64,000 bases of DNA from Spirochaetia bacterium (GTDB lineage: Bacteria; Spirochaetota; Spirochaetia; CADAEX01): contig CAXXHA010000032.1 of assembly GCA_963662265.2 (NCBI GenBank), forward strand, positions 112,144-176,143, written 5' to 3'. Made by a program: the position numbers and the translations under genes. Of this stretch, positions 6,539-48,498 are shown in pieces (the first letter of the stretch is position 1; every line of letters starts with the position of its first letter). The notes beneath the pieces are model-generated. The model searched no databases and was not told the origin of the DNA. It saw nothing but the letters and a program-made list of their open reading frames with translations.

Positions 6539-7177
6539 TTATTCAGAGCGGTGCTTCAGCATTACTGACATTATCGCGTACCCTTCAGAAAGATCTTCTT
6601 CAGTAACAATAATATCATCCGGCAGCTGCAGTTTTGCAGGGGAAAAATTCCATATAGCTTTTATTCCCGAATCAACCATTTTTATCGCGGCTGCCTGTGC
6701 ATTTGCAGAGGGTACAGATAATATCCCGAGTTCTATATTGTTTTCCCTGATATAGTCATAAAGTTCATTCATGTTATGTATTCTTACAGATCGAACTGTT
6801 TTCCCGGTTTTTTCGGGATTATTGTCGAATGCCGCAATTATCCTCAGTCCATGCCGTTTAAATTCATGATATCCAAGCAGCGCCTCTCCAAGGGAACCTG
6901 CCCCGACCAGTACAGCCCTGGTATCCCTGTCCCACCCGAGGAATTCTTCGATTGAAGCGATCAGATCCTTGACCAGGTATCCTCTCTTGGGCCGTCCTAC
7001 AATATTGGTAAATGTAAGATCTTTTCTTACCTGTATTGAATTTAAATTAAGCCTGAAACCTATATCTGTTGCAGATATCCATTCAAAATCCATCTGGTCA
7101 TACTCATAGAGAAGCCTCAGGTAATATGGGATTCTCCTGATTGTAGGGACCGGGATATCAACATTTTTATTAATCAT
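6539..7177 (-). CDS. rex: Redox-sensing transcriptional repressor Rex
   Basis: PTIRRIPYY, QVRKDL, G..KRGY.V, LVGAGSLGEAL, IWNFSP. Confidence 0.93.
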   Translation of the reverse strand: MINKNVDIPVPTIRRIPYYLRLLYEYDQMDFEWISATDIGFRLNLNSIQVRKDLTFTNIVGRPKRGYLVKDLIASIEEFLGWDRDTRAVLVGAGSLGEALLGYHEFKRHGLRIIAAFDNNPEKTGKTVRSVRIHNMNELYDYIRENNIELGILSVPSANAQAAAIKMVDSGIKAIWNFSPAKLQLPDDIIVTEEDLSEGYAIMSVMLKHRSE

Positions 7178-7269: not shown

Positions 7270-8241
7270 CTAGAAATCAATTTCAAATCCTATCTTTTTT
7301 TCCCTGCATTTTTCATAAACAGCTTTTGCAGCGTAGAGGTCAAACAATGCCATACCCACTGTCTTGAAAAATGTTGTACCGTATTCGCCTCTTTCAGGTT
7401 CTCTTCCTGAATTTATGAAATTTCCAAGAGTTTCAATCTGATCCTCTTTTATTGTTCCCTCTTCAAGGGGAATGAGAATTTCACCTGATTCCTCTTTTGC
7501 AAAATCAATATCCACCCAGACCTTATCTGTCAGGCTGAATATTGCATCGGTGAATTCCCTTACTTCAGGCTGAAAAGATCCCACAGCAACGAAATGCTTA
7601 TTCTTCAAAAGTTCAGGATCATCAGGAATTACAGGATCCTTTGCAGTTGTTGTAGTAATAACTATATCAGATTTTTCAATCAGTTCATTTACTGTTTCTG
7701 AATGAAAGACATTAAGCTCGGGAAGAGCCTCTTTGAGCCTGTCTGTAAAAGCCGGGAGACCTTCAGGAAACATATCATACAAGTACACATTTTTAATATT
7801 TCTTGCACTGCATGCAGCAATAACCTGATAAAACCCCTGTACACCACAGCCGATTATACCGAGTGATTCAGAATCCTTTCTTGAATGATGTCTTACACTC
7901 ACACCCCCGCAGGCACCTGTTCGAAGTGCAGTAATAATTTTCCCATCCATTATTGCGAGGATTTCTCCCGTATCCGGATCATTAAGCATTATTCCGCCGT
8001 TGATTGTAGGCTTGCTGTATTTTTTATTCCCCGGAAACAGGGTAAGTATTTTTGTAGCTATATCGCCCTTTGCCACACATGGCATCAGTAGCAGTGAATT
8101 GCTATCCTTGCAGTCAATTGTGACACGTTCAGGCATTATATAATCTTTTGATTCATATATTCTGAGAGCCTCTTCCACACTGTCCATGATTTCATTCATT
8201 GTTACAGCTTCCAAAATATTTTTCTGGTTCAGTATTATCAT
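7270..8241 (-). CDS. Ornithine cyclodeaminase/mu-crystallin family; probable Delta1-pyrroline-2-carboxylate reductase
   Basis: ITALRTGA, IIGCGVQG, AVGSFQPEVRE, FKTVGMALFDL. Specific function inferred from the trans-3-Hyp dehydratase in the same locus. Confidence 0.8.
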   Translation of the reverse strand: MIILNQKNILEAVTMNEIMDSVEEALRIYESKDYIMPERVTIDCKDSNSLLLMPCVAKGDIATKILTLFPGNKKYSKPTINGGIMLNDPDTGEILAIMDGKIITALRTGACGGVSVRHHSRKDSESLGIIGCGVQGFYQVIAACSARNIKNVYLYDMFPEGLPAFTDRLKEALPELNVFHSETVNELIEKSDIVITTTTAKDPVIPDDPELLKNKHFVAVGSFQPEVREFTDAIFSLTDKVWVDIDFAKEESGEILIPLEEGTIKEDQIETLGNFINSGREPERGEYGTTFFKTVGMALFDLYAAKAVYEKCREKKIGFEIDF

Positions 8242-8261: not shown

Positions 8262-9824
8262 TTATTTATCCTTTAATTCCGCCTCTATTTTTTTCGAGGT
8301 CTTTGTAATTGACAATCCGCCTAGTGCTGTGCAGCGCAGTTCGCATGGAATACTCTTTCCCACTTTATCCATGGTATCAATCACCTCATCAACACTGACT
8401 ACATGATCAAATCCTGCAATTGCCATATTTACAGAAGATAAAGCATTTGAAGCAGCCATTACATTCTTACCCAGGCATGGAACTTCAACCCTGTTGGCAA
8501 CAGGATCACAGATCATTCCGAGAATATTCTGAAGCGCCATTGAAACAGCTGCCAATGACTCATTCAGTGGCAGATCGGCAATTGCAGAAAGAGCAGCAGC
8601 AGCCATCCCGGATCCTGCTCCGCATTCAGCCTGGCACCCCCCCACTTCTGCTGAAAAAGTTGCATGCTGTGCTATGAAAACGCCTATCATTCCGGCAGCA
8701 AGCAGGGCTTTAGCCATTACATCTTCCGAAAGGTTCATTTCATCAGCCGCACCTATTACAGCTCCGGGGAGGCCTCCGCAGGATCCGGCTGTGGGAGCAG
8801 CCACAATTACACCCATGGAACTTTTAATCTCCATCAGTGCTGTTGTATAAAGTATTATCCTGTTTAAAAGCCCGCAGTTAAGAAGTTCATCACTGTCCAT
8901 TTTCGCCTTGAAACTGCCTGACTGATAACCGAGTATTCTGTCGCGGTATTCTGTTCCGGCAATCCCCGCTCTAATGGATTTCCTTAAAACAGCAACAATA
9001 TCTTTCATCTTCACGAATACTTCATCTTTTGAAATATTTCCCCTTGCAGATTCATATTCGAGTGCAAGTTCCCAGAGTTTAATATTTCTGCTGCTGTTGT
9101 ATTTCTTCATTTCATCAGCAGTAATAAACGGAACAGATATATTTTTTCTTGAAAGAACAGGCAGGACAGGTTTCAGCTCCCGGATTTGTCTGATTTCATA
9201 TTTTTCAGCAATTTCCTGTTTTATACTGTCCGGCAGAAAAGATGATGATTTAATTTCAAAAAGACAGCCATTCCTGCTTTCAGTCTTAACAATAAATTCA
9301 TGATCTGTTTGTCTTTCAAGATAATCATCTATTTCACTGTCATATTTATCTGTAAAAACAAGTGTCTCAAAATAGTCTCCGCAGACAGATATTTCAAAAC
9401 CGTCTATATCAACTATCTCAATCATACCGCCGCCTGTTGAGACAGCAGTTATTCTATGTGATTCAGTCTTGTTGCTGAGTATTATCAGGTATGTATTCGG
9501 ATGATCATAATTGAGTTTTTCAATTTGGATATCAATATCAAGCCCGGCTTCTTCAGCTCCCTTTAAATAGTCTACAAGTCTTTCATCAGAAGGCTCCCAT
9601 CCCAGGAACCCTCCGAAAAGCCCCATATCAGAGCCCTGTGTATCATGAGTTGTGGCAAGAGAACCATCAGGATCGAATTTTATAGTTATATCTGATATTT
9701 CACCACCCATAAGGTCTCTTGCCAGAAGGCCGATTCTTACAGAAGCGGCACAGTGGGAACTCGAAGGCCCCCTCATAACAGGTCCGATCACATCGTTGAA
9801 TATACTTGGATACATTTTTACCAC
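8262..9824 (-). CDS. Fused (beta+alpha) [4Fe-4S] L-serine dehydratase-like protein, divergent active site
   Basis: GPSSSH, HPN, STGGG, APTAGSCG, GGCQAECG and CDPVANRVEVPC (three cluster Cys). Confidence 0.85.
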   Translation of the reverse strand: MVKMYPSIFNDVIGPVMRGPSSSHCAASVRIGLLARDLMGGEISDITIKFDPDGSLATTHDTQGSDMGLFGGFLGWEPSDERLVDYLKGAEEAGLDIDIQIEKLNYDHPNTYLIILSNKTESHRITAVSTGGGMIEIVDIDGFEISVCGDYFETLVFTDKYDSEIDDYLERQTDHEFIVKTESRNGCLFEIKSSSFLPDSIKQEIAEKYEIRQIRELKPVLPVLSRKNISVPFITADEMKKYNSSRNIKLWELALEYESARGNISKDEVFVKMKDIVAVLRKSIRAGIAGTEYRDRILGYQSGSFKAKMDSDELLNCGLLNRIILYTTALMEIKSSMGVIVAAPTAGSCGGLPGAVIGAADEMNLSEDVMAKALLAAGMIGVFIAQHATFSAEVGGCQAECGAGSGMAAAALSAIADLPLNESLAAVSMALQNILGMICDPVANRVEVPCLGKNVMAASNALSSVNMAIAGFDHVVSVDEVIDTMDKVGKSIPCELRCTALGGLSITKTSKKIEAELKDK

Positions 9825-9830
9825 CTGTTA

Positions 9831-10637
9831 TCAGCCGAGTTTTGAGGCTTTTTCTCTGCAGGCCCTTACAGCATCTATGACAGAATATCTGAAACTGTTT
9901 TTTTCAAGAACCTGAACTGCCTCTATAGTTGTACCGCCCGGTGAACAGACCATGTCTTTAAGTTCGCCCGGATGCTTTCCTGTTTCCCTTACAACTCTGG
10001 CTGAACCGAGTACAGCCTGAGATGCAAGCTTATATGCAGTTGCCCTTGGAAGTCCCTCAAGGACTGCCCCGTCTGCGAGAGCTTCTATAAACATATAGAC
10101 ATATGCCGGAGATGAGCCTGAAACAGCAGTACAGACATCAATATACTTCTCATCAATTACTTCTGTTAAACCGAAGCTCTGGAATATTTTTTCGACATAT
10201 CCCAGTTCTTCATCTGTTACATTCCTGCCCCTGCAGAGAACGCTCATCCCTTCTCCGACAAGAGCGGGAGTGTTAGGCATTGTCCTGATGACTTTAACAG
10301 GGAATGAGAAGTATTTCTCAACCGATTCAACAGTTATACCTGCTGCAATTGTAACAATGACTGTTTTCTCAGACACCTTTTTATTGATTTCATCAAGAAC
10401 ATACTTGTATATATCCGGCTTTACAGCAAGAATTATTATTTCTGAATTCTCAGAAAGCCTGCAGTTATCAGCAGTCACATCAATTCCCGGAAAATCCTTT
10501 TCCATTAAAGAAAGAGATTCCGGGTTTTTATCAGAAACAATTATTTCGCCGGCACAGGCAAAACCGGAGGATATAATTCCCCCGATAATTGCCCGGCCCA
10601 TGTTTCCGGTACCAATTATTCCTATTTTATATTTCAT
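9831..10637 (-). CDS. proC: Pyrroline-5-carboxylate reductase
   Basis: IGIIGTGNMG, AVKP, RTMPNTP, SGSSPAY, HPGELKDMVCSPGGTT. Confidence 0.97.
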   Translation of the reverse strand: MKYKIGIIGTGNMGRAIIGGIISSGFACAGEIIVSDKNPESLSLMEKDFPGIDVTADNCRLSENSEIIILAVKPDIYKYVLDEINKKVSEKTVIVTIAAGITVESVEKYFSFPVKVIRTMPNTPALVGEGMSVLCRGRNVTDEELGYVEKIFQSFGLTEVIDEKYIDVCTAVSGSSPAYVYMFIEALADGAVLEGLPRATAYKLASQAVLGSARVVRETGKHPGELKDMVCSPGGTTIEAVQVLEKNSFRYSVIDAVRACREKASKLG

Positions 10638-10659: not shown

Positions 10660-13023
10660 TCAGCAGCCGAAATTCTGTTCAGTACGGTTGATAATCTCAT
10701 CCTGAAGAGGTTTTTCAAGATTATTGAAATAATCGCTGTATCCTGCAACTCGGACAATAAGATCTGAATACTGTTCAGGATTCTCCTGTGCCTTGAGCAG
10801 AATTTTCTTGTCAACAACATTGAACTGAATATGATGACCATCAAGTTTGAAATAAGATCTTATCAGGGCAACTAGTTTGTCAATATTACTGTCCCCCTCA
10901 AGAACAGACGGAGAGAATTTCTGGTTGAGCAGGGTTCCTCCTGTTCTCAAATGGTCCATTTTGGCAGCAGATTTCACTACAGCTGTAGGCCCGTTTCTGT
11001 CAGCATCTGTAGCAGGAGAAATACCTTCAGAAAGAGGCATACCGCTCTTCCTTCCGTCAGGTGTTGCACCGATTACTGAACCGAAATAAACATGGCATGT
11101 TGTAGGAAGCATGTTGATTCTGTACTGTCCACCATTCATTGTAGGTCTTCCGTCAACAGAATCAAAATATGAATCAAAAATCATCTTCATCAGGTCATCA
11201 GCATAATCATCATCATTTCCATATTTGGGAGTCTTGTTCTTGAAGAGATTATGGATGGAAGGATCCTGAAAATCGTTATCAAGCGCTTCAAGAAGCTCTT
11301 TCATGGAAAGATTTTTTTCATCAAAGACATGTTTTTTTATGGAAGAAAAACTGTCAGTAATAGATCCTATACCTACTCCCTGAATATATCTCGTGTTATA
11401 CCTGGCCCCGCCTGAATTATAATCTTTTCCCTCTTTAATACAGTCATCTATAATTACAGAGAGAAAAGGTACCGGCATATAGTTGGAATAGATTTTCTCA
11501 ATTGTATTATTGCCGTGAATCTTGATATTTATGAAATAATCCAGCTGCTTCTTGAAAGCATTGAAGAAATCATCAAATGACTGAAAATCTTCTGCTTTTC
11601 CTGTTTCAAGACCGAGTTTTTTACCAGTCATTTTATCAAGACCGTTGTAAAGAGTAATTTCCATTATCTTGGTCAGGTTCATGTAGCCTGTAAGGATATA
11701 TGATTCTTTACCGAATGCGCCTGTTTCAACACATCCGCTTGTTCCGCCGTCACGGGCATCTTCAATTTTCTTTCCGGCTCTAACCATTTCAGAGACAACA
11801 GCATCAGCATTAAAAACTGAAGGCTGACCCCATCCCTCACGGATAACTTCGCATGCCCTTTTTACAAACTTGTTTGGATTCTTCTTGCTTACCTGTACAT
11901 TTGAACTGGGCTGAAGAAGATGCATATCGCTTATAACATCAAGAACAAGGTAGGTAACATCATTTACACCATCTTCCCCTTCTGCAGTAAGCCCGCCTGA
12001 ATTGATATTGGCAAAATCTGTATATGTACCACTTTCCTTCAGAGTCACACCTACTTTTGGAGGTGCAGGCTGATTATTGAACTTGACCCAGAGGCATTCA
12101 AGGATTTCCCTTGCCTGATCCCTGTCGAGAGTTCCCTCTTCTGTTTCCTTTCTGTAAAAAGGATAGAGGTGCTGATCAAGCCTTCCGGGATTAAAGGAGT
12201 CCCAGTTATTCATTTCAGAAACAACAGCTATATGAACAAACCAGTACATCTGGACAGCCTGCTCAAATGTTTCAGGCGGATAAGCTGGTACTCTTCGGCA
12301 GTTGAGAGCTATTTTTTCAAGCTCACTCTTTCTGACCGGATCTTTTTCAGAAGCTGCCTTTTCCGCAGCATAATCAGCATAACGCCCGGCATACTTCATG
12401 ATTGCATCACAGGTAACAGCCATTGCATCAAGCTGTTCCTTTTTTTCAAATGCTTTGGGATCATTCAGAAAATCAAGTTCTCCCGCAGCTTTTTCTATAT
12501 CTTTTTTGAAATCAAGAAAACCTCTTTTATATATCTTACCATCAGCAACAGTATGGCCGGGGCCCCTCTGCTCCATGAATTCTGTGAAAATTCCTGCTGA
12601 ATAACATTCTTTCCATTCATCAGTCATGGAAGAGAGTATTTTACCTCTCAAAGCCCTGTTTTCCCAGAAAGGAATTATTTCATTTTTCTGATACTCAAAA
12701 ATTTCATCAGATACTTTATAGGAAATTTTCTTCCTTTTATTCATTATCTCGAAATCATCCAGAGTATGACAGCATAATTCAGGATATGTGGAAGTGGCAG
12801 CAGGCCTCTCACCTCTTTCGCCGACTATAATTTCTCCATCATTAATACAGAGCTCCTTGTTTTCCATAATATTTTTAAAAACAAGAGCCCGCAGCATTGG
12901 GATTGATACTGTTCCTTCATATTTTTTATAAACTTCAGTAACAAGTTTAGCTCTCTCTATAGAAATACTCGGGACAGCGTTTAGACTCTGTTCTCTGAGC
13001 TTTATTACCCTTTCATTCATCAT
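10660..13023 (-). CDS. hypD: Glycyl radical trans-4-hydroxy-L-proline dehydratase
   Basis: HypD active-site signature: EFMEQRGPGHTV, WDSFNPGRLDQ, ESGTYTDFANIN, SGCVETG, LTGYMN, LPTTCH; glycyl loop RVAGYS; adjacent proC. Confidence 0.93.
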   Translation of the reverse strand: MMNERVIKLREQSLNAVPSISIERAKLVTEVYKKYEGTVSIPMLRALVFKNIMENKELCINDGEIIVGERGERPAATSTYPELCCHTLDDFEIMNKRKKISYKVSDEIFEYQKNEIIPFWENRALRGKILSSMTDEWKECYSAGIFTEFMEQRGPGHTVADGKIYKRGFLDFKKDIEKAAGELDFLNDPKAFEKKEQLDAMAVTCDAIMKYAGRYADYAAEKAASEKDPVRKSELEKIALNCRRVPAYPPETFEQAVQMYWFVHIAVVSEMNNWDSFNPGRLDQHLYPFYRKETEEGTLDRDQAREILECLWVKFNNQPAPPKVGVTLKESGTYTDFANINSGGLTAEGEDGVNDVTYLVLDVISDMHLLQPSSNVQVSKKNPNKFVKRACEVIREGWGQPSVFNADAVVSEMVRAGKKIEDARDGGTSGCVETGAFGKESYILTGYMNLTKIMEITLYNGLDKMTGKKLGLETGKAEDFQSFDDFFNAFKKQLDYFINIKIHGNNTIEKIYSNYMPVPFLSVIIDDCIKEGKDYNSGGARYNTRYIQGVGIGSITDSFSSIKKHVFDEKNLSMKELLEALDNDFQDPSIHNLFKNKTPKYGNDDDYADDLMKMIFDSYFDSVDGRPTMNGGQYRINMLPTTCHVYFGSVIGATPDGRKSGMPLSEGISPATDADRNGPTAVVKSAAKMDHLRTGGTLLNQKFSPSVLEGDSNIDKLVALIRSYFKLDGHHIQFNVVDKKILLKAQENPEQYSDLIVRVAGYSDYFNNLEKPLQDEIINRTEQNFGC

Positions 13024-13925
13024 CAGCCTCCAATTTCAGCTTTTATACCTGCAGTATCAAAAATATTTTTTATACGTTCCATACGTTTATCTGATGGCAC
13101 GGTATTTTCAGACATCTGATACTTTTTTTCAATTCGGTTGTATTTTGACTCGGCAAAATTATTATAAGGCAGCAGACTCACTTTAATGACTTTTACAGTT
13201 TTCAGGATTTCCACTGTTCTGTTCCAGTTTTCATCATATTCATTGAAACCGGGAATAACAGGTATTCTTATAAAAATATCCTTCCCCATTTCGGAAAGCA
13301 TTTTAAGATTCCTTATTATTACTTCATTTGAAACACCTGTAAAATCTCTGTGTATTTCATTATCAACTGCTTTAAGATCATATAAAAACAGATCAATATA
13401 TTCTGCCAGATCTTTTATTATATTTTCAGAAACATAACCTGAAGTATCAACAGCTGTATGTATTCCCTTTTCCCTGCATTTCACAAGTAATTCTTTTAGA
13501 AAATCATGCTGCATAAAGCATTCCCCGCCGGAAAAGGTTACCCCGCCGTTTGATTCTTCATAGAAAATACTGTCCTTGAGAATCTCTTTCATGACATCAG
13601 TCACAGACATTTCTTCCCCGCAGATTTCTCTGGCGCCATGAGGACAGAATAAAGCACATTTTCCGCATTTCAGACACTTGTTTCTGTCTGTTACAGGATA
13701 TCCGTTTTCTATTGTGATTGCATTATTTACGCATTTTGACATGCAGACTCCGCATCCTGTACATCTGTTTTTCAGAAAAATCAAATCAGGCATAAGACTC
13801 TGGCTTTCTGGATTATGGCACCATAGACAGGACAAAGGACAGCCGTTAAAAAAAACTGTTGTTCTTATGCCAGGTCCATCATGAACTGAATATTTCTGAA
13901 TATTCATAACAATACCTTTCTGCAT
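13023..13925 (-). CDS. Glycyl-radical enzyme activase (HypD activase), radical SAM with 2x[4Fe-4S] insert
   Basis: HDGPGIRTTVFFNGCPLSCLWCHNPES, CxxCxxCxxxC twice, GGVTFSGGE. Confidence 0.95.
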   Translation of the reverse strand: MQKGIVMNIQKYSVHDGPGIRTTVFFNGCPLSCLWCHNPESQSLMPDLIFLKNRCTGCGVCMSKCVNNAITIENGYPVTDRNKCLKCGKCALFCPHGAREICGEEMSVTDVMKEILKDSIFYEESNGGVTFSGGECFMQHDFLKELLVKCREKGIHTAVDTSGYVSENIIKDLAEYIDLFLYDLKAVDNEIHRDFTGVSNEVIIRNLKMLSEMGKDIFIRIPVIPGFNEYDENWNRTVEILKTVKVIKVSLLPYNNFAESKYNRIEKKYQMSENTVPSDKRMERIKNIFDTAGIKAEIGG

Positions 13926-13993: not shown

Positions 13994-15184
13994 CTAGAAT
14001 ATCATCATGAGAATATTTGCAATAATACCGGCAGTTACACCTGCAAGCAGCTGGATGTTTATTGCAAGACCGACAAATTTTTCACTTTTGAAGCTTTCCA
14101 TCATTGCAACATGTGTGCAGAGGAATCCTGCAAAAGTAATACCAATCGCTGTGTATACTGCAACATCTCTTGAAACAATAATTCCACTCTTTATAAACTC
14201 GGGGATAAGACCGAGAGAAGCACCTACACTTCCGAGAGCTGTTACAGGAAAAGCAATAGCTTCAGGATTTGAAAAACCGAAAAGCGGTTTTAAAACAGGA
14301 GCTGCAAGCTTGCCGAGCCATGGAATAAGACCGATTCCCTCGTAGGGAAGACCCTGATATCCAAGTGAAGGATCTGCAACACCTTTAGTGAGAAGCATTA
14401 TGAATGTACAGATTACAAGAACAGCAGCAATCAGTGATATACCGAGTTCAACACCATACTGTCCACCTTTAACCCCTGCATCAAGAAATCTCATTGCAAA
14501 ACTCTTTTTCTGCTCATTGGCAGCCTGATTTTCCTCAGCTTTTTTTTCATTTTCAATATCAGCTTCATCCATGAAATCTTCAGGATTTACAAAATCAGTT
14601 CCAAGAGCCTTCTTTGTTTTAATCATCATTACACGGATACCTACAGCGCATCCAAGGAATGCAGCAATATTACCTACAACAGCCTCTTTAACAAATCCCT
14701 GGCCGATAACAAATGTTGTAACAATAAGTCCCATACCAGCGGTTGTTCCGAGAATTGTAAGACACGGTACCTGATGTTTTCTGAAATAAGATGAGAATTT
14801 TCTGTCTTTCATAAGAGGACAGATAGCAGGATTATCAGAAATATAGCTTACAGTAGCACCGAGAAAAGACGCCCCGGGTAAACCGTAAAGCGGTTTCATC
14901 ATGGGTGAAAAAATCTTATCAAGTATTTTAAGAAATTCGAACTCACTGGCAACTCTTCCCATAGCCCCTGCAATTACAGCAACAGCAAGAATATAAAAAG
15001 ATGTGCTCATAAGAAGATCATATGCTGTTTTCATCATGGTTGAAAACAAGTTTGCCACACCCATTTTTGTTACAAGAGCAGCAAAAAAAGCAGCAACAAT
15101 GACTGTAAAAATCACAAGACTTTTCATGTCATTAATTTTATTCCGGGAATCATTTTTAATCCCTGCAACATTTCCAGTTGTCAT
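13994..15184 (-). CDS. Multi-pass membrane protein with gate (nucleoside-recognition-like) domains; putative amino-acid transporter
   Basis: About 9-10 hydrophobic segments; two gate-like repeats (PMMKPLYGLPG / PVLKPLFGF..PE); YISDNPAI. SD aaggag precedes ATG 15184. Confidence 0.7.
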   Translation of the reverse strand: MTTGNVAGIKNDSRNKINDMKSLVIFTVIVAAFFAALVTKMGVANLFSTMMKTAYDLLMSTSFYILAVAVIAGAMGRVASEFEFLKILDKIFSPMMKPLYGLPGASFLGATVSYISDNPAICPLMKDRKFSSYFRKHQVPCLTILGTTAGMGLIVTTFVIGQGFVKEAVVGNIAAFLGCAVGIRVMMIKTKKALGTDFVNPEDFMDEADIENEKKAEENQAANEQKKSFAMRFLDAGVKGGQYGVELGISLIAAVLVICTFIMLLTKGVADPSLGYQGLPYEGIGLIPWLGKLAAPVLKPLFGFSNPEAIAFPVTALGSVGASLGLIPEFIKSGIIVSRDVAVYTAIGITFAGFLCTHVAMMESFKSEKFVGLAINIQLLAGVTAGIIANILMMIF

Positions 15185-15221
15185 AAAAAACTCCTTCAAT
15201 TTAGATCCAGGTATACCTTTA

Positions 15222-15390: not shown

Positions 15391-16068
15391 TTATTCTTTT
15401 GTATATCTTGATTTAACTTCACGAAGATAGGAATATATTGTGTATTTGGTATTTCCCAGGATATCTGCAAGATATTCTACAGATCCCTTGAGCTGGAAAT
15501 AACCTTTTTTATCAAGACTGCTGATTATATACATTTTTTCATTTTTCTTTGTTTTATCCAGAGGCTTACCGATTTTCTTCTTTACCTCTTCCAGATATTT
15601 ATTGATCAGATCATCTGCAAAACCTTCGGTTTCTGTAGCAGAGGCATTGTTTTTTGAATAAAAATCATATGAACGGGTCTGAATCATGTCTTTAATAAAG
15701 CTTTCTGCAATTTCAGCTCGTGTCATATCATAGTTAATACATAAAAAACCTACAATTTTTCCTTTATCATCTTTTATACATACAGCACTTGCATTGAGTC
15801 TTTTACCGTTTTTAGCAATTTCAAAATAATTCGGAACATAGTCAGCATCCTGCAGCGTTGCTGTTTCAAGAATATAATTACCAAGATCATTCATCGGTTC
15901 ACCGACTTTTCTTCCTGTTACATGTGGGTTTGCAATTTCCACAAGTGAACACTGGGGATTTGATACATCATGAAGCGCTACCTCATAATCAGGCCCGAGT
16001 ACAACACCAAGTCCTTTGACAATAGGAACAAAAGGTTTCAGAAAAGGATTTATTATTTTGTCATCCAT
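15391..16068 (-). CDS. YheO/DauR-type PAS-HTH transcriptional regulator
   Basis: YEVALHD, HVTGRKVGEP, GFLCINYD, LDKKGYFQLKGSVEYLADILGNTKYTIYSYL; SD before ATG 16068. Confidence 0.92.
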   Translation of the reverse strand: MDDKIINPFLKPFVPIVKGLGVVLGPDYEVALHDVSNPQCSLVEIANPHVTGRKVGEPMNDLGNYILETATLQDADYVPNYFEIAKNGKRLNASAVCIKDDKGKIVGFLCINYDMTRAEIAESFIKDMIQTRSYDFYSKNNASATETEGFADDLINKYLEEVKKKIGKPLDKTKKNEKMYIISSLDKKGYFQLKGSVEYLADILGNTKYTIYSYLREVKSRYTKE

Positions 16069-16145
16069 AATTACTATTCCCCTGAATAAATATCTTAACT
16101 GGGGTAATTGTCCCCTTTCTTGCAAAAACAGTCAATATTTTGATG

Positions 16146-16180
16146 AAAAAAACTGCAGAAACACCACGTGTTTCTGCAGT
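16146..16180 (-). terminator. Intrinsic terminator
   Basis: actgcagaaacac-cac-gtgtttctgcagt perfect stem followed by a U-tract on the minus strand. Confidence 0.75.
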
Positions 16181-16230: not shown

Positions 16231-17295
16231 TTATCTTAAAATAAATCCATCTTTGAGATTATCTTCAGGATCAAAGAAAAATTCACATTTTCCCGACAAA
16301 TTCGCAGTTCCTGAAACCTGCGGAACAACAGCCTTATGCGGACCATATTCAGTAACTTCAGCTACTTTTACCGACATTGTTGTACCGATAATTGATTCAA
16401 TGACAATTTCTTCATCAAACTCAAGTTCTCCCTTTGCATAATGGAGAGCTGCTCTTGCACTTACACCGGAACCGGTAGATGATCTGTCAACCTCTCCTTC
16501 TGCAAAAACACATACGTTTCTGCTGTGATGACTGCTGTCATGCGGTTTCCCTGTGATAATTGTTCCGTACAGAAAGGACAGATCATCAAAGAAAGGATGC
16601 TTGATTTCATAATTATCCATTACAGCGTATTTAATCCTTCTTCCATAATCAATAAGCTTGTCATGATCCTTTTTATCAAGTGAAAGACCCAGATCTTCAG
16701 CTTCGACAAAAGCATAAAAAGCTCCGCCGAATGAAATATCAAATTTCACTTCACCAATTCCCGGTACATTGACAGTTTTATCTCTCATGTACAGGAAAGA
16801 AGGAACATTTAAAAAAGATACTTTTTCAACAATCCCTTTGTCATTTCTGAATGCTTTTGATCTGATAAGTCCGGGAGGAGCATCAATCACAAGATCCGGA
16901 TTCTGCTCATCCTTCTTAATCATTCCTGTATCAAGCACAAGCTTTGTAAGTGCAATTATCGCATGTCCGCACATGGTGGAATATCCTTCATTATGAAGAA
17001 AAAATGTTCCGAAATCAGCGTTTTCACTTATAGGTTCTGTGATAACAGCGCCATACATATCTGCATGACCTCTCGGCTCCCACATTGTTCTGGTTCTTAT
17101 ATAATCAAGGTTATCACGGAAATACCTTCTTTTTTCAAGGATATCCTTACCTTTGATCTCCGGGAGTCCTCCTGTATATACCCTGAGCGGTTCGCCCCCT
17201 GTATGAGCATCCAGTACAGTAATTTTTTCCCATGAATCCGGTGCTTCCCATGAAGCAAGCGTATCAAGTTTTGCAGAAAAATCTTCACCCATCAT
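16231..17295 (-). CDS. Proline racemase family, Cys/Thr type: trans-3-hydroxy-L-proline dehydratase
   Basis: DAHTGGEPLR, EPRGHADMYGA, YSTMCGHA (Cys) and DRSSTGSGVSAR (Thr replaces the second Cys), as in L3HYPDH-type enzymes. Confidence 0.87.
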   Translation of the reverse strand: MMGEDFSAKLDTLASWEAPDSWEKITVLDAHTGGEPLRVYTGGLPEIKGKDILEKRRYFRDNLDYIRTRTMWEPRGHADMYGAVITEPISENADFGTFFLHNEGYSTMCGHAIIALTKLVLDTGMIKKDEQNPDLVIDAPPGLIRSKAFRNDKGIVEKVSFLNVPSFLYMRDKTVNVPGIGEVKFDISFGGAFYAFVEAEDLGLSLDKKDHDKLIDYGRRIKYAVMDNYEIKHPFFDDLSFLYGTIITGKPHDSSHHSRNVCVFAEGEVDRSSTGSGVSARAALHYAKGELEFDEEIVIESIIGTTMSVKVAEVTEYGPHKAVVPQVSGTANLSGKCEFFFDPEDNLKDGFILR

Positions 17296-17520: not shown

Positions 17521-18960
17521 ATGGACACTACAGCTACTATAATTACTTTTTTTCTATATTTTGTATTCATGCTTTTCATCGGAATCTATTTCTATAAGAG
17601 AAACAGGAATATTGAAGACTATCTTCTGGGAGGGAGATCTCTAGGTAAATGGGTAACTGCAATTTCTGCGCAGGCAAGCGATATGAGCGGGTGGCTCCTG
17701 ATGGGACTTCCGGGCGCAGTTTACCTTTTCGGTTTAAACCAGTGCTGGATTGCTGTGGGACTTACTATAGGAACATTCCTGAACTGGCATCTTATATCTG
17801 AAAAACTAAGAGTTGCAACAGAAAAAACAGAATCAATGACTCTTTCAGGTTTTTTTGCAAAAAAATACAATGACAAATCAGGTCTTCTCCAGTCAGTTTC
17901 TGCTGTAATAATTTTAATCTTCTTTACAATTTATACTTCATCCGGCCTTGTAGGAGCGGGAAAACTTTTTGAATCAATGTTTGGAATTGATTACAGAAAT
18001 GCTGTACTTATCGGGTCAGCCGCAATTGTACTCTACACTCTTCTCGGAGGATTCATGGCAGTCTGCTGGACAGACCTTTTCCAGGGGATGCTTATGTTTG
18101 CCGCAATAATCCTGGTTCCGCTCTTTGCAGTGATTAAAGCACCTGAAATGAATGTGCAGATGACTATCAACAGCAATTATCTTGATATTTTAAATACAGG
18201 AGGCGGATCTTTCTCACTGCTTGCACTGTTATCATCAATGGCCTGGGGACTCGGGTATTTCGGCCAGCCCCATATATTAACAAGATTTATGAGCGTAAAA
18301 TCTGTTTCCGAACTTAAGCAATCTAAGATTATTGCAATGGTATGGGTAATAATCTCTCTTGCAGGGGCAGTTATTATCGGACTCGTTGCAAAACCTTATT
18401 TTTCTGCACTTCCTGAAGGAAATCATGAAAAAGTCTTTATTTTCCTTATACAGAAGCTTTTCAATCCATGGATAAGCGGAATACTGCTTGCAGCAATCCT
18501 TGCCGCGATAATGTCGACAATAGATTCACAGCTTCTGGTTTCATCATCAACACTGACAGAAGATTTCTACAAATTCTTCATCAGAAAAAATTCTTCCGAA
18601 AAAGAACTGATGTGGGTGGGAAGAGGATGTGTCCTTTTAATTGCAGTTATTGCAGTATTAATGGCAATGGTTCCGGGAAACACAGTCCTTTCGCTTGTAT
18701 CATACGCATGGGGGGGACTAGGCGCTTCTTTCGGACCGCTTGTAATTACAGCTCTCTATTCCAGAAACATAAGCTGGAAATCAGCGTTTGCAGGTATGAC
18801 AACAGGAGCTCTTACAGTCATAATATGGAAAAATTTCCCTCTCCTGCCTGTTTATGAAATAATCCCCGGTTTTATATTTAACTTTGCTGCAATTTATATA
18901 GTACAGAAACTTCTTGCTGTCAGGGAAATTGAGGCCAGGGAGTCTGTAACAATAAAATAA
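17521..18960 (+). CDS. putP: Sodium/proline symporter
   Basis: DYLLGGRSLG, SAQASDMSGWLLMGLPG, GGFMAVCWTD, WGLGYFGQPHILTRFM, AAIMSTIDSQLL, SYAWGGLG. Confidence 0.96.
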   Translation: MDTTATIITFFLYFVFMLFIGIYFYKRNRNIEDYLLGGRSLGKWVTAISAQASDMSGWLLMGLPGAVYLFGLNQCWIAVGLTIGTFLNWHLISEKLRVATEKTESMTLSGFFAKKYNDKSGLLQSVSAVIILIFFTIYTSSGLVGAGKLFESMFGIDYRNAVLIGSAAIVLYTLLGGFMAVCWTDLFQGMLMFAAIILVPLFAVIKAPEMNVQMTINSNYLDILNTGGGSFSLLALLSSMAWGLGYFGQPHILTRFMSVKSVSELKQSKIIAMVWVIISLAGAVIIGLVAKPYFSALPEGNHEKVFIFLIQKLFNPWISGILLAAILAAIMSTIDSQLLVSSSTLTEDFYKFFIRKNSSEKELMWVGRGCVLLIAVIAVLMAMVPGNTVLSLVSYAWGGLGASFGPLVITALYSRNISWKSAFAGMTTGALTVIIWKNFPLLPVYEIIPGFIFNFAAIYIVQKLLAVREIEARESVTIK

Positions 18961-24591: not shown

Positions 24592-26022
24592 ATGCCATTA
24601 CATTTTAACAAGACAAAAATCATATGCACGATCGGGCCGGCTACATGCGAAGTTGAGACAATCATCAAGCTTGTGGAAAACGGAATGAACGTGGCCAGAA
24701 TGAACATGTCTCACGAATCACATGAAGTAAAGCTCAATCATCTTAAAAACATCAGAAAAGCGGAAAAAATAATCGGATACCCGATACCGATAATGGTTGA
24801 CCTTTGCGGTCCCAAGCTGAGACTCGGCGAGATAGAGGAGCCTTTTGAAATAAATGCTGGGGAGGAAATAATCCTTACTTCGGAAGATATAAAAGGAACA
24901 AAGGAAAAAGTTTCAACAACCTATACAAACCTTCCGCAGGATGTAAACCCGGGCGATCCAATCCTTATAAATGACGGACTTCTCAAGTTTGAAGTAATTG
25001 AATCTGACGGAAAAGATGTAAGATGCAGGGTTATTGACGGAGGGCTCATGCAGTCAAAAAAAGGGATAAACCTTCCTGGTACAAAAATGACAATACCGCT
25101 TATAACAGAGAAAGACAAAGCTGATATTGAATTCGGAATAAAATACGGGGCTGATTTCTTTGCAATGTCATTTGTAAGAAACAGCGATGATATAAGGGAA
25201 CTGAAATCAATAATCCTGAGAAAAACAGCAGATATTCCTGTCATAGCAAAGGTTGAAAGGCCTGATGCTGTTGCAGATATTGATGCTATCTGTGATGAAA
25301 GCGATGCTGTTATGATTGCAAGAGGAGATCTCGGGGTTGAAGTACTTCCGGAAGAAGTTCCGCTGCTTCAGAAAAAGATTATTTCAAGATGTATTGAAAA
25401 GAATACACCTGTAATCACAGCGACACAGATGCTTGAATCAATGATAACTTCTCCCCGCCCTACCCGGGCCGAGGCAAGCGATGTTGCAAACGCTGTTCTC
25501 GACGGAACAGATGCTGTAATGCTGAGCGCCGAAACATCTGTCGGTAAATATCCTCTTGAAACAGTATCAATCATGAAAAGAATATGCCTGAAAGCTGAAG
25601 AAAGAGGAATTTATTCAAACAGGATAAGACTCAAAAGAAAAGATGAAGACAGCTCAAGGGATTTTCTTGTAAAAAACATGACAAGGGCAGTCTGCTCATT
25701 CGCAGCCGATATTGATGCGGCAGCAATTATTGTAATAACAAGAACAGGAAAAACTGCAAGGAGACTATCGAGATTTAGAATCAACACACCAATACTGGCA
25801 TTTGTCGAGGATGAAAAAGTAATAAAACAGATAACTCCTGTGTGGGGTGTAAAAAGCGAGCTTATAGACAACATGTCAGATACAGACTCAACACTTAAAC
25901 GAGCAAAGGAGCTGGCTGTAAGTCTCGGGTATATAAAACCGGGAGAGTGCGTAATATTTGTGGCAGGCATTCCGCTTCTGGAATCACAGAAAGTGAACAT
26001 GATGAAGGTTGATATAGTTTAA
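24592..26022 (+). CDS. pyk: Pyruvate kinase (paralogue 1)
   Basis: TKIICTIGPA, RMNMSH, KGINLPG, AKVE, MIARGDLGVE, TATQMLESM, PTRAEASDVANA, DGTDAVMLSAETSVG. Confidence 0.98.
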   Translation: MPLHFNKTKIICTIGPATCEVETIIKLVENGMNVARMNMSHESHEVKLNHLKNIRKAEKIIGYPIPIMVDLCGPKLRLGEIEEPFEINAGEEIILTSEDIKGTKEKVSTTYTNLPQDVNPGDPILINDGLLKFEVIESDGKDVRCRVIDGGLMQSKKGINLPGTKMTIPLITEKDKADIEFGIKYGADFFAMSFVRNSDDIRELKSIILRKTADIPVIAKVERPDAVADIDAICDESDAVMIARGDLGVEVLPEEVPLLQKKIISRCIEKNTPVITATQMLESMITSPRPTRAEASDVANAVLDGTDAVMLSAETSVGKYPLETVSIMKRICLKAEERGIYSNRIRLKRKDEDSSRDFLVKNMTRAVCSFAADIDAAAIIVITRTGKTARRLSRFRINTPILAFVEDEKVIKQITPVWGVKSELIDNMSDTDSTLKRAKELAVSLGYIKPGECVIFVAGIPLLESQKVNMMKVDIV

Positions 26023-27350: not shown

Positions 27351-28781
27351 ATGTCAATCAATTTCAATAAGACAAAAATATTATGTACTATCGGCCCTGC
27401 AACAGACAGTGTTGATAAAATAGTAGAACTTGCAAAAAACGGCATGAATATTGCCAGAATCAACATGTCTCATGGATCAGATGAAACCAAACTGAATTCC
27501 ATAAAAAACATAAGGGAAGCGGAAAAAATCATCGGATACCCTATTCCTGTTGTTGCAGACCTGTGCGGTCCAAAACTGCGGCTTGGCGATATTGAAGAAC
27601 CTTTTGAAGTAAAGGAAGGTGATGAAGTTATCCTGACTTCTGATGATGTAAAAGGGACAAGAGAAAAAGTATCGACAAGCTATAAAAATCTCCCCCATGA
27701 TATAATACCCGGAAATCCGGTACTCATAAATGACGGTCTTATAAAACTCGAAGTTACAGGAATAAGCGGTAATGATGTCAGGTGCAGAGTTGTAAACGGC
27801 GGACTCATGCAGTCGAGGAAGGGAATAAATCTTCCCGGAACAAATCTGTCAATTCCGCTGATTACGGAAAAAGACAGAAAAGATATTGAGTTCGGAATAA
27901 ACAACGGGGCAGACTTCTTTGCAATGTCTTTCGTAAGCTCAAGTGAAGATATAAAAGAACTTAAAGCAATTATCCTCAGGAAATCCGCATCTGTCCCTGT
28001 TATTGCAAAAATAGAAAGACCTGAAGCTGTTGATGATATTGAGGCAATATGCGATGCAAGCGATGCTGTCATGATTGCAAGAGGAGATCTTGGTGTGGAA
28101 GTTGATCCTGAAGAAGTCCCCCTGATACAGAAGGCAATTATCTCCACCTGCATCAGGAAAAACACCCCGGTAATAACTGCTACCCAGATGCTTGAATCAA
28201 TGATAACTTCTCCCCGCCCCACCCGTGCCGAAGCAAGCGATGTTGCAAATGCTGTCCTTGACGGAACAGATGCTGTAATGCTGAGTGCGGAAACCTCTGT
28301 AGGAAAGTACCCGGTAGAAGCTGTATCGATTATGAAGAGGATATGCATGAAGGCCGAGGCCCGTGAAAGCGATCTTCACAGGATAAGACTGAGAAAAGGG
28401 ATGAATGAACAGACCGAGGACATGTTTGTAAATACAATGACAAGAGCAGTCTGTACTGTTGCTGTAGATATAAATGCATCTGCTATAATTGTTATCACGA
28501 AGACAGGTAAAACAGCACGGAGTCTTTCAAAATACAGGATACAGACGCCGATCCTTGCATTTGTAGATCATGAGGAGACAATCAAGCTTATAACACCTGT
28601 CTGGGGTGTAAAAGGGGAACTGATAGACAACATGTCTGATACCGATTCAACTCTTGAAAGGGCAAAAGAACTGGCTCTTCAGCTGAATTACATTAAAAAA
28701 GGGGACAATATAGTATTTGTTACAGGAATACCTCTTCTTGAATCAAAACGGGTCAATATGATGAAGGTTGACACAGTGTAG
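27351..28781 (+). CDS. pyk: Pyruvate kinase (paralogue 2)
   Basis: Same PK motifs and identical length (476 aa) to paralogue 1. Confidence 0.98.
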   Translation: MSINFNKTKILCTIGPATDSVDKIVELAKNGMNIARINMSHGSDETKLNSIKNIREAEKIIGYPIPVVADLCGPKLRLGDIEEPFEVKEGDEVILTSDDVKGTREKVSTSYKNLPHDIIPGNPVLINDGLIKLEVTGISGNDVRCRVVNGGLMQSRKGINLPGTNLSIPLITEKDRKDIEFGINNGADFFAMSFVSSSEDIKELKAIILRKSASVPVIAKIERPEAVDDIEAICDASDAVMIARGDLGVEVDPEEVPLIQKAIISTCIRKNTPVITATQMLESMITSPRPTRAEASDVANAVLDGTDAVMLSAETSVGKYPVEAVSIMKRICMKAEARESDLHRIRLRKGMNEQTEDMFVNTMTRAVCTVAVDINASAIIVITKTGKTARSLSKYRIQTPILAFVDHEETIKLITPVWGVKGELIDNMSDTDSTLERAKELALQLNYIKKGDNIVFVTGIPLLESKRVNMMKVDTV

Positions 28782-39332: not shown

Positions 39333-40295
39333 TCAATATTTAAATTCATATATATTACGATCAACAATGTTTATCAACTGTTTTCCTTCAATATATGCTT
39401 TAATGTTTTGTTCAATAATAGAAAGAGTTTTATTTAATGTGTGAGGAAGAAAATCATGCCCTGCAATATGAGGAGTTATTATTATGTTTTTAGTATTCCA
39501 TATTTTATGGTTACGAGGAAGAGGTTCATTTTCAAAAACATCTAATGCTGCTCCTGATATTTTATTGTTTTCAATCGCTTCACATAAAGCATTAATATCG
39601 AGAGTATTACCGCGGCCTACATTTATCAATACAGCATCCTGTTTAATTCTGGAAATCATTTCTTTATCCATAATATTTATTGTCTCTGGAGAAGACGGTA
39701 AAGACATGGAAACAATATCAGCACGATGTATAATTTTTGCCAAATCATTGAAAGAATACATCTCATCCGCATATTTATTGTTTTTATTAATAGACCTTCT
39801 AACACCAATAATGTGTACACCAAAAGCTTTAAGCATTTTTGCATACTGAGTTCCAATATCTCCCATGCCAAGTATCAAAACAGTAGCATCCTGAAGCATT
39901 TTTTCGTTGCCTTCATCATTCCATAAACAATTATTCTGGTTGTCCCTGTAAATATTCAGTTTTTTATACAGAGATAAAGTTAAAGCTAACATAAACTCTG
40001 ACTGGGCTTCCCCATAAGCACCGCTTGCATTAGTAACAATAACACTATCTTTCAGAATATTATCCTTAAGATATGCATCAGCGCCTGCAGTAATCAGTTG
40101 GATCCATTTCAGCTTTTCTGCGTGCTCCAATAATTCTAAAGGTGGATTCCCAATTATTATTTTCGAATTTGATATTTGATCGTGGTTTATATTGCAATCT
40201 GATGCAAACTCAAAATCTATATATTTTTCAAACTGAGAAAGCTTATTTTTCTGGGAAAGATCAAGAGGAATAATAACAAGAACTTTGGTTTTCAT
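39333..40295 (-). CDS. D-2-hydroxyacid dehydrogenase family
   Basis: TAGAD, TNASG, GMGDIG, INVGRG, LDVFENEPLP, ITPHIAG. Confidence 0.92.
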   Translation of the reverse strand: MKTKVLVIIPLDLSQKNKLSQFEKYIDFEFASDCNINHDQISNSKIIIGNPPLELLEHAEKLKWIQLITAGADAYLKDNILKDSVIVTNASGAYGEAQSEFMLALTLSLYKKLNIYRDNQNNCLWNDEGNEKMLQDATVLILGMGDIGTQYAKMLKAFGVHIIGVRRSINKNNKYADEMYSFNDLAKIIHRADIVSMSLPSSPETINIMDKEMISRIKQDAVLINVGRGNTLDINALCEAIENNKISGAALDVFENEPLPRNHKIWNTKNIIITPHIAGHDFLPHTLNKTLSIIEQNIKAYIEGKQLINIVDRNIYEFKY

Positions 40296-40343
40296 AACAA
40301 TCCTATGCAATATTTAATATTATTTCACATTAAAAATACTTAT

Positions 40344-41192
40344 CTACAATCCCAGATAATAACCTTTGTTAAGAAAATCTTCCATTTCCTTAAGTGTATC
40401 AATTGCTCTGGAATGATCAAGCTGTGCTATTGCTGCAGAAATATAATTTATCAGACACATGGGAGCAACATAGGAATTTTTGAATGAAATGCCGCCGACA
40501 CTGCATGGTAAAATGATATCACCGTAATTTTCTATATCTGAAATATTCTGACTTGTAAACAGAATAACCTTAACATTTCTTTTTCTTAGCCATAATATTA
40601 AATTTGCGGTTGTTTTCGAGTATCTTGGAAATAAAAAAGCTACACAAATATCCTGTTCATTACAGCCGATCAATTCTTCAGGAAAGATCATTCCGACAGA
40701 CTGTACTAACCTTACATTGGGTCTTATCTGACCAAGACGGGAGGTCATATAATGAGCTAAGGCAAAAGAACTTCTCATACCAAGAACATAAACATTTCTT
40801 GCATTACTTACTTCATCAATAGTAACAGATAAATCTTTTTGAGATATTTTTGTCATTGTAGTTGTAATATCGGCTATATCATTCTGCATAGTATCCATAA
40901 GTAACTGGTCAGGTGTCCCTGTTTCGATTTTGTTAATCAATCTCTCTGGCAGACTTGCTTTTGTAACCAGTCCTTTCTGGACCTCCTTCTGCATATCGGA
41001 ATAGCCATTATATCCCATCATTCTTGCAAAACGGATAATCGTAGTCGTACTTACACCGATTTTCATTGCAACATCATCTAGAGTGGAAAAGGCAAATTTA
41101 TCTGGATTATCAATAAAATAATTAGCTACTGTTTTTTGTGAATACGTAAGATCATTAAACCGCTCTGCAACTTTATTTGAAAAATCAGACAT
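40344..41192 (-). CDS. MurR/RpiR family regulator (HTH + SIS)
   Basis: LTYSQKTVANY, GVSTTTIIRFARMMGYNGYSDMQ, GMRSSF, FPRYS. Confidence 0.93.
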   Translation of the reverse strand: MSDFSNKVAERFNDLTYSQKTVANYFIDNPDKFAFSTLDDVAMKIGVSTTTIIRFARMMGYNGYSDMQKEVQKGLVTKASLPERLINKIETGTPDQLLMDTMQNDIADITTTMTKISQKDLSVTIDEVSNARNVYVLGMRSSFALAHYMTSRLGQIRPNVRLVQSVGMIFPEELIGCNEQDICVAFLFPRYSKTTANLILWLRKRNVKVILFTSQNISDIENYGDIILPCSVGGISFKNSYVAPMCLINYISAAIAQLDHSRAIDTLKEMEDFLNKGYYLGL

Positions 41193-41219
41193 TTTCTTCC
41201 CCTGCTTTAAACCATTTTT

Positions 41220-41258
41220 AAAAGTATGTATAAATAAGTTATTATTTATACATACTTT
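41220..41258. terminator. AT-rich hairpin between the enolase-like gene and rpiR
   Basis: aaagtatgtataaataa-gtta-ttatttatacatacttt perfect inverted repeat. Confidence 0.5.
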
Positions 41259-41292
41259 ATCAATATTTTCTTCAGTTAGCTACTAAATTATT

Positions 41293-42564: not shown

Positions 42565-42585
42565 TCTATCACTCTCCTACTTAAT

Positions 42586-43987: not shown

Positions 43988-44101
43988 TTCAAACTCCTTC
44001 GGTTTATTTATCATGTTTTGTATATATTACTATATGTTGCAGTATTAACTACTTTGATATAAAACATATTAACTATACTTCTATATCATACTATGGTTAT
44101 T

Positions 44102-45397: not shown

Positions 45398-45425
45398 TCT
45401 CTAAATACCTCAATATCCTGTTCTA

Positions 45426-45460
45426 AAAATGTGCTCTGATAAATCAGAGCACATTTTTTT
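45426..45460. terminator. Intrinsic terminator/hairpin between dctQ and the larA-like gene
   Basis: aaaaatgtgctctgat-aa-atcagagcacattttt. Confidence 0.6.
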
Positions 45461-45474
45461 AATTATAGTATCTG

Positions 45475-46023: not shown

Positions 46024-46046
46024 AATACTCCTTCCCGATTATTTAA

Positions 46047-47123: not shown

Positions 47124-47146
47124 TAGGTAATTCTCCTTTTTTTTTA

Positions 47147-48421: not shown

Positions 48422-48498
48422 AAAAAACCTTCCCCCCTTTCTAAGATTAGTTTTACCCTACCCCTGCTTTACATCAGTAAAACAGTCAATATAAATTT

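Follow-up and report, generated by a model that had tools for sequence, protein, structure and literature searches.

The window analysed here, a 64,000-nucleotide stretch of DNA from a Spirochaetia bacterium, carries on its minus strand a gene whose product is a fused beta-ACT-alpha protein of the iron-sulfur (Fe-S) serine-dehydratase fold. Since this protein lacks the usual catalytic histidine and its gene lies in an operon for converting hydroxyproline (Hyp) to proline, its substrate may be one of the hydroxyproline isomers and not serine. The locus is made up of the following features:

6539..7177 (minus strand): Rex redox-sensing repressor (NF003994, 258.6 against a cut-off of 130), 92 nt downstream of the OCD-family gene
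7270..8241 (minus strand): OCD/mu-crystallin-family NAD(P)H enzyme, candidate reductase for the cyclic imine delta1-pyrroline-2-carboxylate (Pyr2C) (PF02423, 191 bits)
8262..9824 (minus strand): the fused beta/ACT-like/alpha Fe-S serine-dehydratase-fold protein, an open reading frame (ORF) of 520 amino acids with a GTG start
9831..10637 (minus strand): proC, pyrroline-5-carboxylate reductase (TIGR00112, 279.6 against 196.75)
10660..13023 (minus strand): HypD, glycyl-radical trans-4-hydroxy-L-proline dehydratase (NF043068, 1450.9 against 1100)
13023..13925 (minus strand): radical-SAM HypD activase (NF043069, 423.2, with a cut-off of 425; TIGR02494, 366 against 174)
13994..15199 (minus strand): CD0519/CD1768-family membrane protein, candidate transporter (NF049989, 441 against 300)
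15391..16125 (minus strand): YheO-like regulator with PAS and HTH domains (PAS_6, 121 bits; HTH_22, 71 bits)
16152..16180 (minus strand): strong terminator-like hairpin, 13 pairs followed by a T-run, 3' of the proline-racemase-family gene
16231..17295 (minus strand): proline-racemase-family protein with a Cys/Thr pair (best NCBIfam match NF045511, 368, below the cut-off of 540)
17521..18960 (plus strand, divergent): PutP sodium/proline symporter (TIGR02121, 625 against 515.5)

From the HypD activase gene to the end of the OCD-family gene, the sequence contains no flagged terminator-like site, so that the activase, HypD, proC, the fused gene and the OCD-family gene are probably one transcript; the hairpin at 16152..16180 sets the proline-racemase-family gene apart from this downstream unit. 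The motifs MCGH and DRSSTGSG give the proline-racemase-family protein a Cys/Thr catalytic pair, which we take to mark the type that dehydrates trans-3-hydroxy-L-proline and not a racemase or epimerase. The fused gene is therefore the only one in the locus that established chemistry leaves unaccounted for. Its OCD-family neighbor reaches no NCBIfam cut-off, the best matches being an OCD-family model (245 against 417) and the Pyr2C/Pip2C reductase model (188 against 322).

An earlier note on this DNA had described the ORF at 8262..9824 as tightly placed between proC and the OCD-family gene. The spacing holds, with gaps of 6 nt to proC (counted from the listed GTG) and 20 nt to the OCD-family gene, but the GTG is probably not the real start: AGGTGG lies 5 nt upstream of an ATG at 9815, the listed GTG falls within that ribosome-binding site, and a 100%-identical database protein is 517 amino acids long. 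The gene is therefore more likely to span 8262..9815, with the ATG at 9815 probably its true start, a product of 517 amino acids and a gap to proC of 15 nt.

Domain matches place both halves of a serine dehydratase in this one protein. NCBIfam recognizes sda_beta at residues 6 to 158 and sda_alpha at residues 235 to 516, while Pfam detects SDH_alpha (PF03313) at residues 246 to 504 (221 bits) and gives SDH_beta a weak, subthreshold match. For an AlphaFold2 (AF2) model with a mean pLDDT of 78.6, the best Foldseek match was 4rqo, the Legionella L-serine dehydratase LpLSD (E 1.3e-12; TM 0.60/0.69), which was also the sole solved relative found by sequence (phmmer with the alpha part, 7e-30). The AF2 confidence drops below 50 at the active-site loops (residues 1 to 22, 55 to 60, 338 to 348, 388 to 394, 444 to 448 and 498 to 510), where the pocket geometry is unreadable. 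The protein scored under all three NCBIfam equivalog cut-offs for L-serine ammonia-lyase, namely TIGR00718 (211.9 against 243.2), TIGR00719 (120.4 against 161.2) and TIGR00720 (149.1 against 345.1).

What sets the protein apart lies in its active site, where it carries the motifs GPSSSHCAA (residues 19 to 27), THDTQGSD (59 to 66), HPN (108 to 110), SAEVGGCQAECG (391 to 402), DPVANRVEVPCLGKN (440 to 454) and RCT (497 to 499). The retained elements listed in the earlier note (GPSSSH, HPN and three cluster cysteines) can all be seen in the translation, and so can the departures from canonical L-serine dehydratase motifs that it reported; the latter are conserved in 214 family members, unlike the five of five canonical enzymes aligned, which were taken from carrier genomes. 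For LpLSD, numbering was counted along the tagged PDB chain and matched to its known residue numbers; its cluster ligands Cys343, Cys385 and Cys396 align to Cys397, Cys439 and Cys450, all three invariant in 214/214 members. Likewise, LpLSD Ser16 to Ser18 and His19 correspond to the SSSH of our protein, Thr290 to Thr345 and His61 to Gln63. Position 63 is glutamine in 193 of the 214 members and histidine in 18, as against histidine in all five canonical sequences, and the protein accordingly lacks the GHGTD motif of the catalytic base. PMC12647591 describes His61 of LpLSD as the likely C-alpha base and the H61A variant as inactive.

Besides the cluster ligands, Cys349, Cys498, Arg445, Thr345 and Thr499 are invariant in the 214 members, with His60 present in 206 and Cys25 in 188. 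Where the family has Arg-Cys-Thr (497 to 499), the five canonical sequences have Lys-Glu-Thr, and where it has Ala-Asn-Arg, ending in Arg445 between two cluster ligands, they have Gly-Gly-Leu/Tyr. With the ligands and SSSH retained and the His61 equivalent, Arg445 and Cys498 changed, the metal site and the serines that bind the carboxylate are thus preserved in the enzyme, whereas its base and pocket have been rebuilt. A sister subfamily at 38 to 39% identity has Gln63, Arg445 and Cys498 in common with it, lacks His60 and Cys25 and keeps SSSHT; its carriers are G537, G552 and G704 (loci L122 to L124), and the copy in G704 adjoins DPPIV and TauE genes. As a separate observation, 42 of the 214 family members, our protein not among them, have a C-terminal cysteine, which is also typical of canonical type 2 enzymes and was seen in three of the four single-chain canonical sequences aligned.

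The protein is also a paralogue. The same contig encodes a canonical pair, sdaAA (288 against a cut-off of 243) and sdaAB (213 against 161), and a higher-scoring canonical SDH_alpha gene accompanies this form in 7 of 11 carrier genomes; both Saprospiraceae/Lewinella bins searched likewise have the canonical form as well as this one. With the canonical function already covered by sdaAA and sdaAB and the base changed, a substrate other than serine gains support. Two further SDH_alpha ORFs, of 427 and 261 amino acids and without an NCBIfam match, were found in the same genome (G000) at C41:19435-20178 and C1:157694-158347 (loci L025 and L026), and one of them adjoins fragments of an NhaC/ArcD-like antiporter.

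At least 7999 relatives were scored in a word-indexed database search, the best 120 of which share 61 to 65% identity, measure 503 to 724 amino acids (mostly 518 to 545) and come from many phyla. The clade, with roughly 8000 or more database relatives of 520 to 545 amino acids, includes Bacteroidota, Chloroflexota, Verrucomicrobiota-like, Acidobacteriota and Asgard archaeal bins. No close homologue was detected among 400 other genomes from the phylum of the window or among 200 other Chloroflexota genomes; 8 of 300 Bacteroidota genomes had one, and 3 more had the sister form. Unlike that of a core enzyme, the distribution is patchy and accessory. Neither HypD nor the fused gene was present in the two same-genus genomes searched, no HypD was found in 19 same-family genomes, and the one of 60 relatives searched that had HypD above the cut-off did not have the fused gene. 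The whole Hyp operon therefore looks like a recently acquired accessory island. A search of the genome for D-proline reductase (PF09338) returned no match, although its search control matched nowhere either.

Gene neighborhoods were compared at 102 loci, 22 from genomes and 80 from metagenomes. A tblastn search with the window and locus proteins found OCD-family proteins at 9 of them, HypD-like glycyl-radical enzymes at 3 and proline-racemase-family proteins at 3, as well as DPPIV at 23, PepX at 8 and, within 6 kb, DHDPS-family proteins at 8. When neighbors within three genes were clustered instead, at the 99 loci that could be indexed (3 were dropped by ORF-choice conflicts, and 20 of the 99 had two or fewer neighbors called), the counts were 22 for DPPIV, 19 for TauE, 10 for M24/AMP_N Xaa-Pro aminopeptidase-like proteins, 8 for OCD, 7 for PepX, 5 for DHDPS, 3 for the proline-racemase family and 2 for HypD. 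In all, 40 of the 99 loci had a neighbor from one or more of four classes, namely Xaa-Pro peptidases, OCD, the proline-racemase family and HypD, and 13, in addition to the window, had one from the last three. The enrichment for Hyp and Pyr2C-reductase-type genes that the earlier note had set as a test was borne out; the same query set matched at none of six canonical serine dehydratase loci taken from carrier genomes as a control. DHDPS-family neighbors were given less weight as evidence because two of them, at L004 and L028, score above the dapA cut-off and could be housekeeping genes.

The informative contexts are scattered over the family tree. At L047, the order is GntR, activase, HypD (1203 against 1100) and homologue; at L062, it is HypD, homologue and activase; and at L084, the homologue diverges from a cluster of HypD, activase, GntR and amino acid ABC transporter genes. 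At L091, it stands beside genes for a 4-Hyp epimerase (565 against 376), DAO and DHDPS. At L070 and L078, it is paired with Cys/Cys epimerase-type proteins, partners with which D-isomers would be allowed as substrates. The OCD partners fall at several separate tree positions, with 26 to 54% identity to the OCD-family protein of the window, and at loci of the Victivallales type the homologue either touches the OCD gene or shares an overlap with it. The subfamily is tied repeatedly to the catabolism of hydroxyproline and proline peptides, in HypD-based (anaerobic) as well as epimerase/oxidase-based (aerobic) clusters, and OCD-family imine reductases from differing subfamilies recur as its partners.

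Co-occurrence across whole genomes points in the same direction. The proline-racemase family (PF05544) is present in 57 of 301 Bacteroidota genomes, which breaks down into 11 of 11 carriers (8 with a close homologue and 3 with the distant sister form) and 46 of 290 noncarriers; Fisher's test gave P values of 5e-9 for the 11 carriers and 1e-6 for the 8 close ones, neither corrected for relatedness. Only one of the eight close carriers, the Polaribacter genome G401, has a second PF05544 copy of the Cys/Thr type, which adjoins an OCD gene; the trans-type dehydratase is missing from the other seven. AcnX (PF04412) was above the cut-off in none of five carrier genomes searched, and Ldh_2 was present in three of the five carriers then checked.

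To our knowledge, the 3-hydroxyprolines are the only hydroxyproline-related compounds that are beta-hydroxy alpha-amino (imino) acids. Precedents exist for the recruitment of extra 3-hydroxyproline dehydratases to Hyp clusters, both of the AcnX-I type (PMC5144071) and of the racemase type (PMC3958920 and PMC4113996). Taken with the Hyp and OCD contexts, these two points lead us to favor, tentatively, a 3-hydroxyproline dehydratase that makes Pyr2C. For the family at large, it is conceivable, and in our estimate somewhat short of an even chance, that a large conserved clade, in which an active site containing Cys and Arg has taken the place of the histidine base, acts on the secondary amine 3-hydroxyproline and hands Pyr2C to an imine reductase.

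Such a [4Fe-4S] beta-eliminating enzyme of the L-serine-dehydratase fold, recruited to hydroxyproline catabolism, might work as follows. The 3-hydroxyl of 3-hydroxyproline would attach to the free iron of the cluster, whose ligands are Cys397, Cys439 and Cys450, and a base other than the canonical histidine would take the C2 proton, the candidates being the invariant Cys498, the near-invariant His60 and Cys25. Water would then leave, and the resulting enamine would tautomerize to the cyclic imine Pyr2C. As Pyr2C is unable to lose ammonia, its reduction to L-proline, at the expense of NAD(P)H, would fall to the neighboring OCD/mu-crystallin enzyme. The scheme builds on the observed fold, cluster ligands, loss of the canonical base, paralogy, gene contexts and genome co-occurrence, whereas substrate, product, identity of the base and coupling to the OCD enzyme are proposed. 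Two parallel routes would run beside this one, with HypD and ProC taking trans-4-Hyp to proline and the Cys/Thr racemase-type dehydratase taking trans-3-Hyp to Pyr2C.

The earlier note had gone further and proposed cis-3-hydroxy-L-proline (cis-3-L-Hyp) as the substrate, a proposal that is partly supported: the Hyp-gene context and the family-wide loss of the histidine agree with it, but nothing singles out the cis-L isomer. In its favor, cis-3-L-Hyp would fit an anti elimination such as that of aconitase-type Fe-S dehydratases, and the presence of a trans-type enzyme alongside this one, in the window as in G401, suggests that the two may be nonredundant. On the other hand, trans-3-L-Hyp is the abundant natural isomer, and the absence of a trans-type dehydratase from seven of the eight Bacteroidota carriers counts for trans-3-Hyp no less than for cis-3-Hyp.

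Several observations weigh against a 3-hydroxyproline dehydratase, and part of them would be at home in one of two other explanations. To begin with those that concern the reading itself, we found no activity reports for any family member and no literature linking Fe-S serine dehydratases to hydroxyproline in full-text searches that extended neither to bioRxiv supplements nor to subscription papers. Within the window, the gene of the trans-3-Hyp dehydratase type already explains the one for the OCD-family protein. Many of the loci with DPPIV or PepX belong to Flavobacteriaceae that are close relatives of one another, and at these loci the peptidases are encoded on the other strand. Of the eight sampled Bacteroidota carriers, only three (G401, G572 and G580) gave an informative context, with the other five (G449/G629, G584, G644 and G656) uninformative. 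The OCD family, found in 17 of 301 genomes, occurs in only two of the eight.

The first of the two alternatives, which we regard as reasonable but somewhat less likely, is a paralogous dehydratase of L-serine and/or L-threonine, fused and type-1-like, that would be coregulated with the breakdown of Pro/Hyp-rich protein and yield pyruvate or 2-oxobutyrate. The fold and the three cluster cysteines are kept, as are the carboxylate-binding elements SSSH and Thr345, so that serine may still bind; all sources that name these proteins call them L-serine dehydratase (ESM Atlas offers generic L-serine ammonia-lyase clusters only), and the 18 members with His63 have the canonical residue. In 4 of the 11 carrier genomes, this form is the only SDH_alpha gene and could there be the serine dehydratase. 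By extension, the OCD partner could be an alanine-dehydrogenase-like reductase that, by completing a conversion of serine to alanine, provides an NADH sink. The protein at 7270..8241 does match the archaeal alanine dehydrogenase model, with 175 bits and under its cut-off, and two carriers, G449 and G629, have neither OCD nor Ldh_2, i.e., no known Pyr2C-reductase family. However, this explanation has to contend with the scores below every curated L-serine ammonia-lyase cut-off, with glutamine in place of the catalytic His61 in 193 of the 214 members, with a canonical enzyme in 7 of the 11 carriers (the window's genome included) and with a rare and patchy occurrence across species. It also leaves aside that the gene specifically adjoins those for HypD, OCD and the proline-racemase family and co-occurs with PF05544, features not seen for the canonical paralogues (none of six loci).

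A second alternative, beta-elimination from some other amino acid with an extra anionic group, takes its cue from Arg445, a new invariant residue between two cluster ligands for which a neutral ring as substrate offers no evident function. The candidates are 3-hydroxyaspartate, from which iminosuccinate would be formed and passed to an OCD-type reductase by analogy with the beta-hydroxyaspartate cycle, and sulfonated amino acids, for example L-cysteate, with release of sulfite. A TauE/SafE-family membrane protein is the second commonest neighbor (19 of 99 loci), its gene in most cases immediately next to the homologue and frequently on the same strand, and a homologue of the sulfite dehydrogenase SorA is encoded directly downstream at L047; a 3-hydroxyproline dehydratase accounts for neither (examples of these neighbors are at L091:2552-3409, L125:5880-6773 and L047:6797-7864). 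Genes of the Asp/Asn beta-hydroxylase family adjoin the homologue at L010 and L014, BhcC-like and YjgF-like genes follow two to three genes downstream at L072 and L083, and the OCD partners match BhcD weakly (121 to 158 bits against a cut-off of 500). We nevertheless judge this alternative improbable, as the window has no such neighbors, the TauE family is functionally diverse and these members have no NCBIfam match, the SorA-like gene occurs at a single locus, and the links to HypD, the proline-racemase family and Xaa-Pro peptidases, along with PF05544 in 11 of 11 carriers, would be left unexplained.

A 3-hydroxyproline dehydratase, our preferred though tentative reading, would have several counterparts, as three folds, those of AcnX-I, enolase and proline racemase, are known to provide such enzymes. 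AcnX-I would be the functional analogue: it is likewise an Fe-S-dependent dehydratase that makes Pyr2C, and its gene often lies in bacterial hydroxyproline clusters, but it belongs to the aconitase superfamily, a fold unrelated to that of our protein. The racemase-type trans-3-Hyp dehydratase follows the same two-step logic, dehydration to Pyr2C and then NAD(P)H-dependent reduction to proline, and the window locus and Polaribacter G401 each encode both this enzyme type and a Pyr2C-reductase partner family; it is cofactor free, however, and differs in fold. The genome-neighborhood study of the proline-racemase superfamily contains no mention of "serine dehydratase," PF03313 or SDH_alpha.

The closest structural counterparts are the L-serine dehydratases themselves (type 1, SdaAA/SdaAB; type 2, LpLSD, PDB 4RQO), which have the same fold and, in the fused type 1 enzymes, the same order of beta, ACT-like and alpha parts. 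With LpLSD our protein shares the three cluster cysteines, SSSH and the equivalent of Thr290; it differs in having Gln for His61, an invariant Cys for Glu445 and Ala-Asn-Arg for Gly-Gly-Leu/Tyr, and, relative to L-serine dehydratases in general, SSSHC for SSSHT, a new His60 and a Hyp/Pro-linked gene context seen at none of the six canonical loci. The pairing of a dehydratase for a beta-hydroxy amino acid with an OCD-family reductase that receives its imine, as proposed here, has a parallel in BhcB and BhcD of the beta-hydroxyaspartate cycle; BhcB is pyridoxal phosphate dependent, and the OCD partners here are far under the cut-off of the BhcD model (NF045643). Finally, the L-cysteine desulfidase CyuA (PDB 9fyi and 9he0) is, according to PMC12647591, a distant relative in its catalytic domain that has a [4Fe-4S] cluster with three cysteines, a base other than the histidine of L-serine dehydratase and an essential active-site cysteine. 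Its similarity to the AF2 model amounts to a Foldseek TM of only 0.36 to 0.38, and no CyuA sequence match to our protein was found in the PDB at E ≤ 0.01. The N-terminal domains also differ, since that of our protein matches sda_beta and is not of the CyuA type with its Cys23/Glu25 pair.

Hydroxyprolines from collagen and from plant and algal glycoproteins are major sources of carbon and nitrogen and major electron sinks; an anaerobic route for trans-4-Hyp became known through HypD. If the favored reading is true, 3-hydroxyproline dehydration would have been invented independently once more, this fold would have gained its first imino acid substrate, and the missing 3-Hyp branch of anaerobic (HypD-based) and of many aerobic hydroxyproline pathways would be supplied. 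The reading would also explain how 3-Hyp is handled in organisms without AcnX or a racemase-type enzyme, and thousands of "L-serine dehydratase" annotations would have to be corrected. Even with a different substrate, this would be a well-defined, widespread and easily assayed group with an altered catalytic apparatus, uncharacterized so far.

Two of the homologous loci have features of separate interest. At L012 (7716-10298, plus strand; an Anaerolineae bin), the family member forms part of an 860-amino-acid ORF in which it is fused to an arginase-family domain, and the fusion adjoins CN-hydrolase, metallo-beta-lactamase-fold and CoA-ligase genes. The Polaribacter locus L108 (G401:C4:575000-594000) is a collagen-type island with 4-Hyp epimerase-type, DPPIV-like, DAO and prolidase-like M24 genes as well as the Cys/Thr racemase-family gene that adjoins an OCD gene; it also encodes a 1011-amino-acid fusion of APH, M23 and class-III aminotransferase domains, which resembles hydroxylysine kinase joined to a phospholyase.

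Elsewhere in the window, a second OCD-family gene (48499..49632, minus strand) scores above the cut-off of a subfamily model named "tyramine oxidase subunit B" (451 against 362) and heads a cluster (39333..49632, minus strand) that also encodes a TRAP transporter, a LarA-like nickel-dependent racemase homologue, a glycerate-kinase-like protein, an enolase and a D-2-hydroxyacid dehydrogenase-like protein. Two full-length pyruvate kinase paralogues (24592..26022 and 27351..28781, plus strand) lie 1.3 kb apart.

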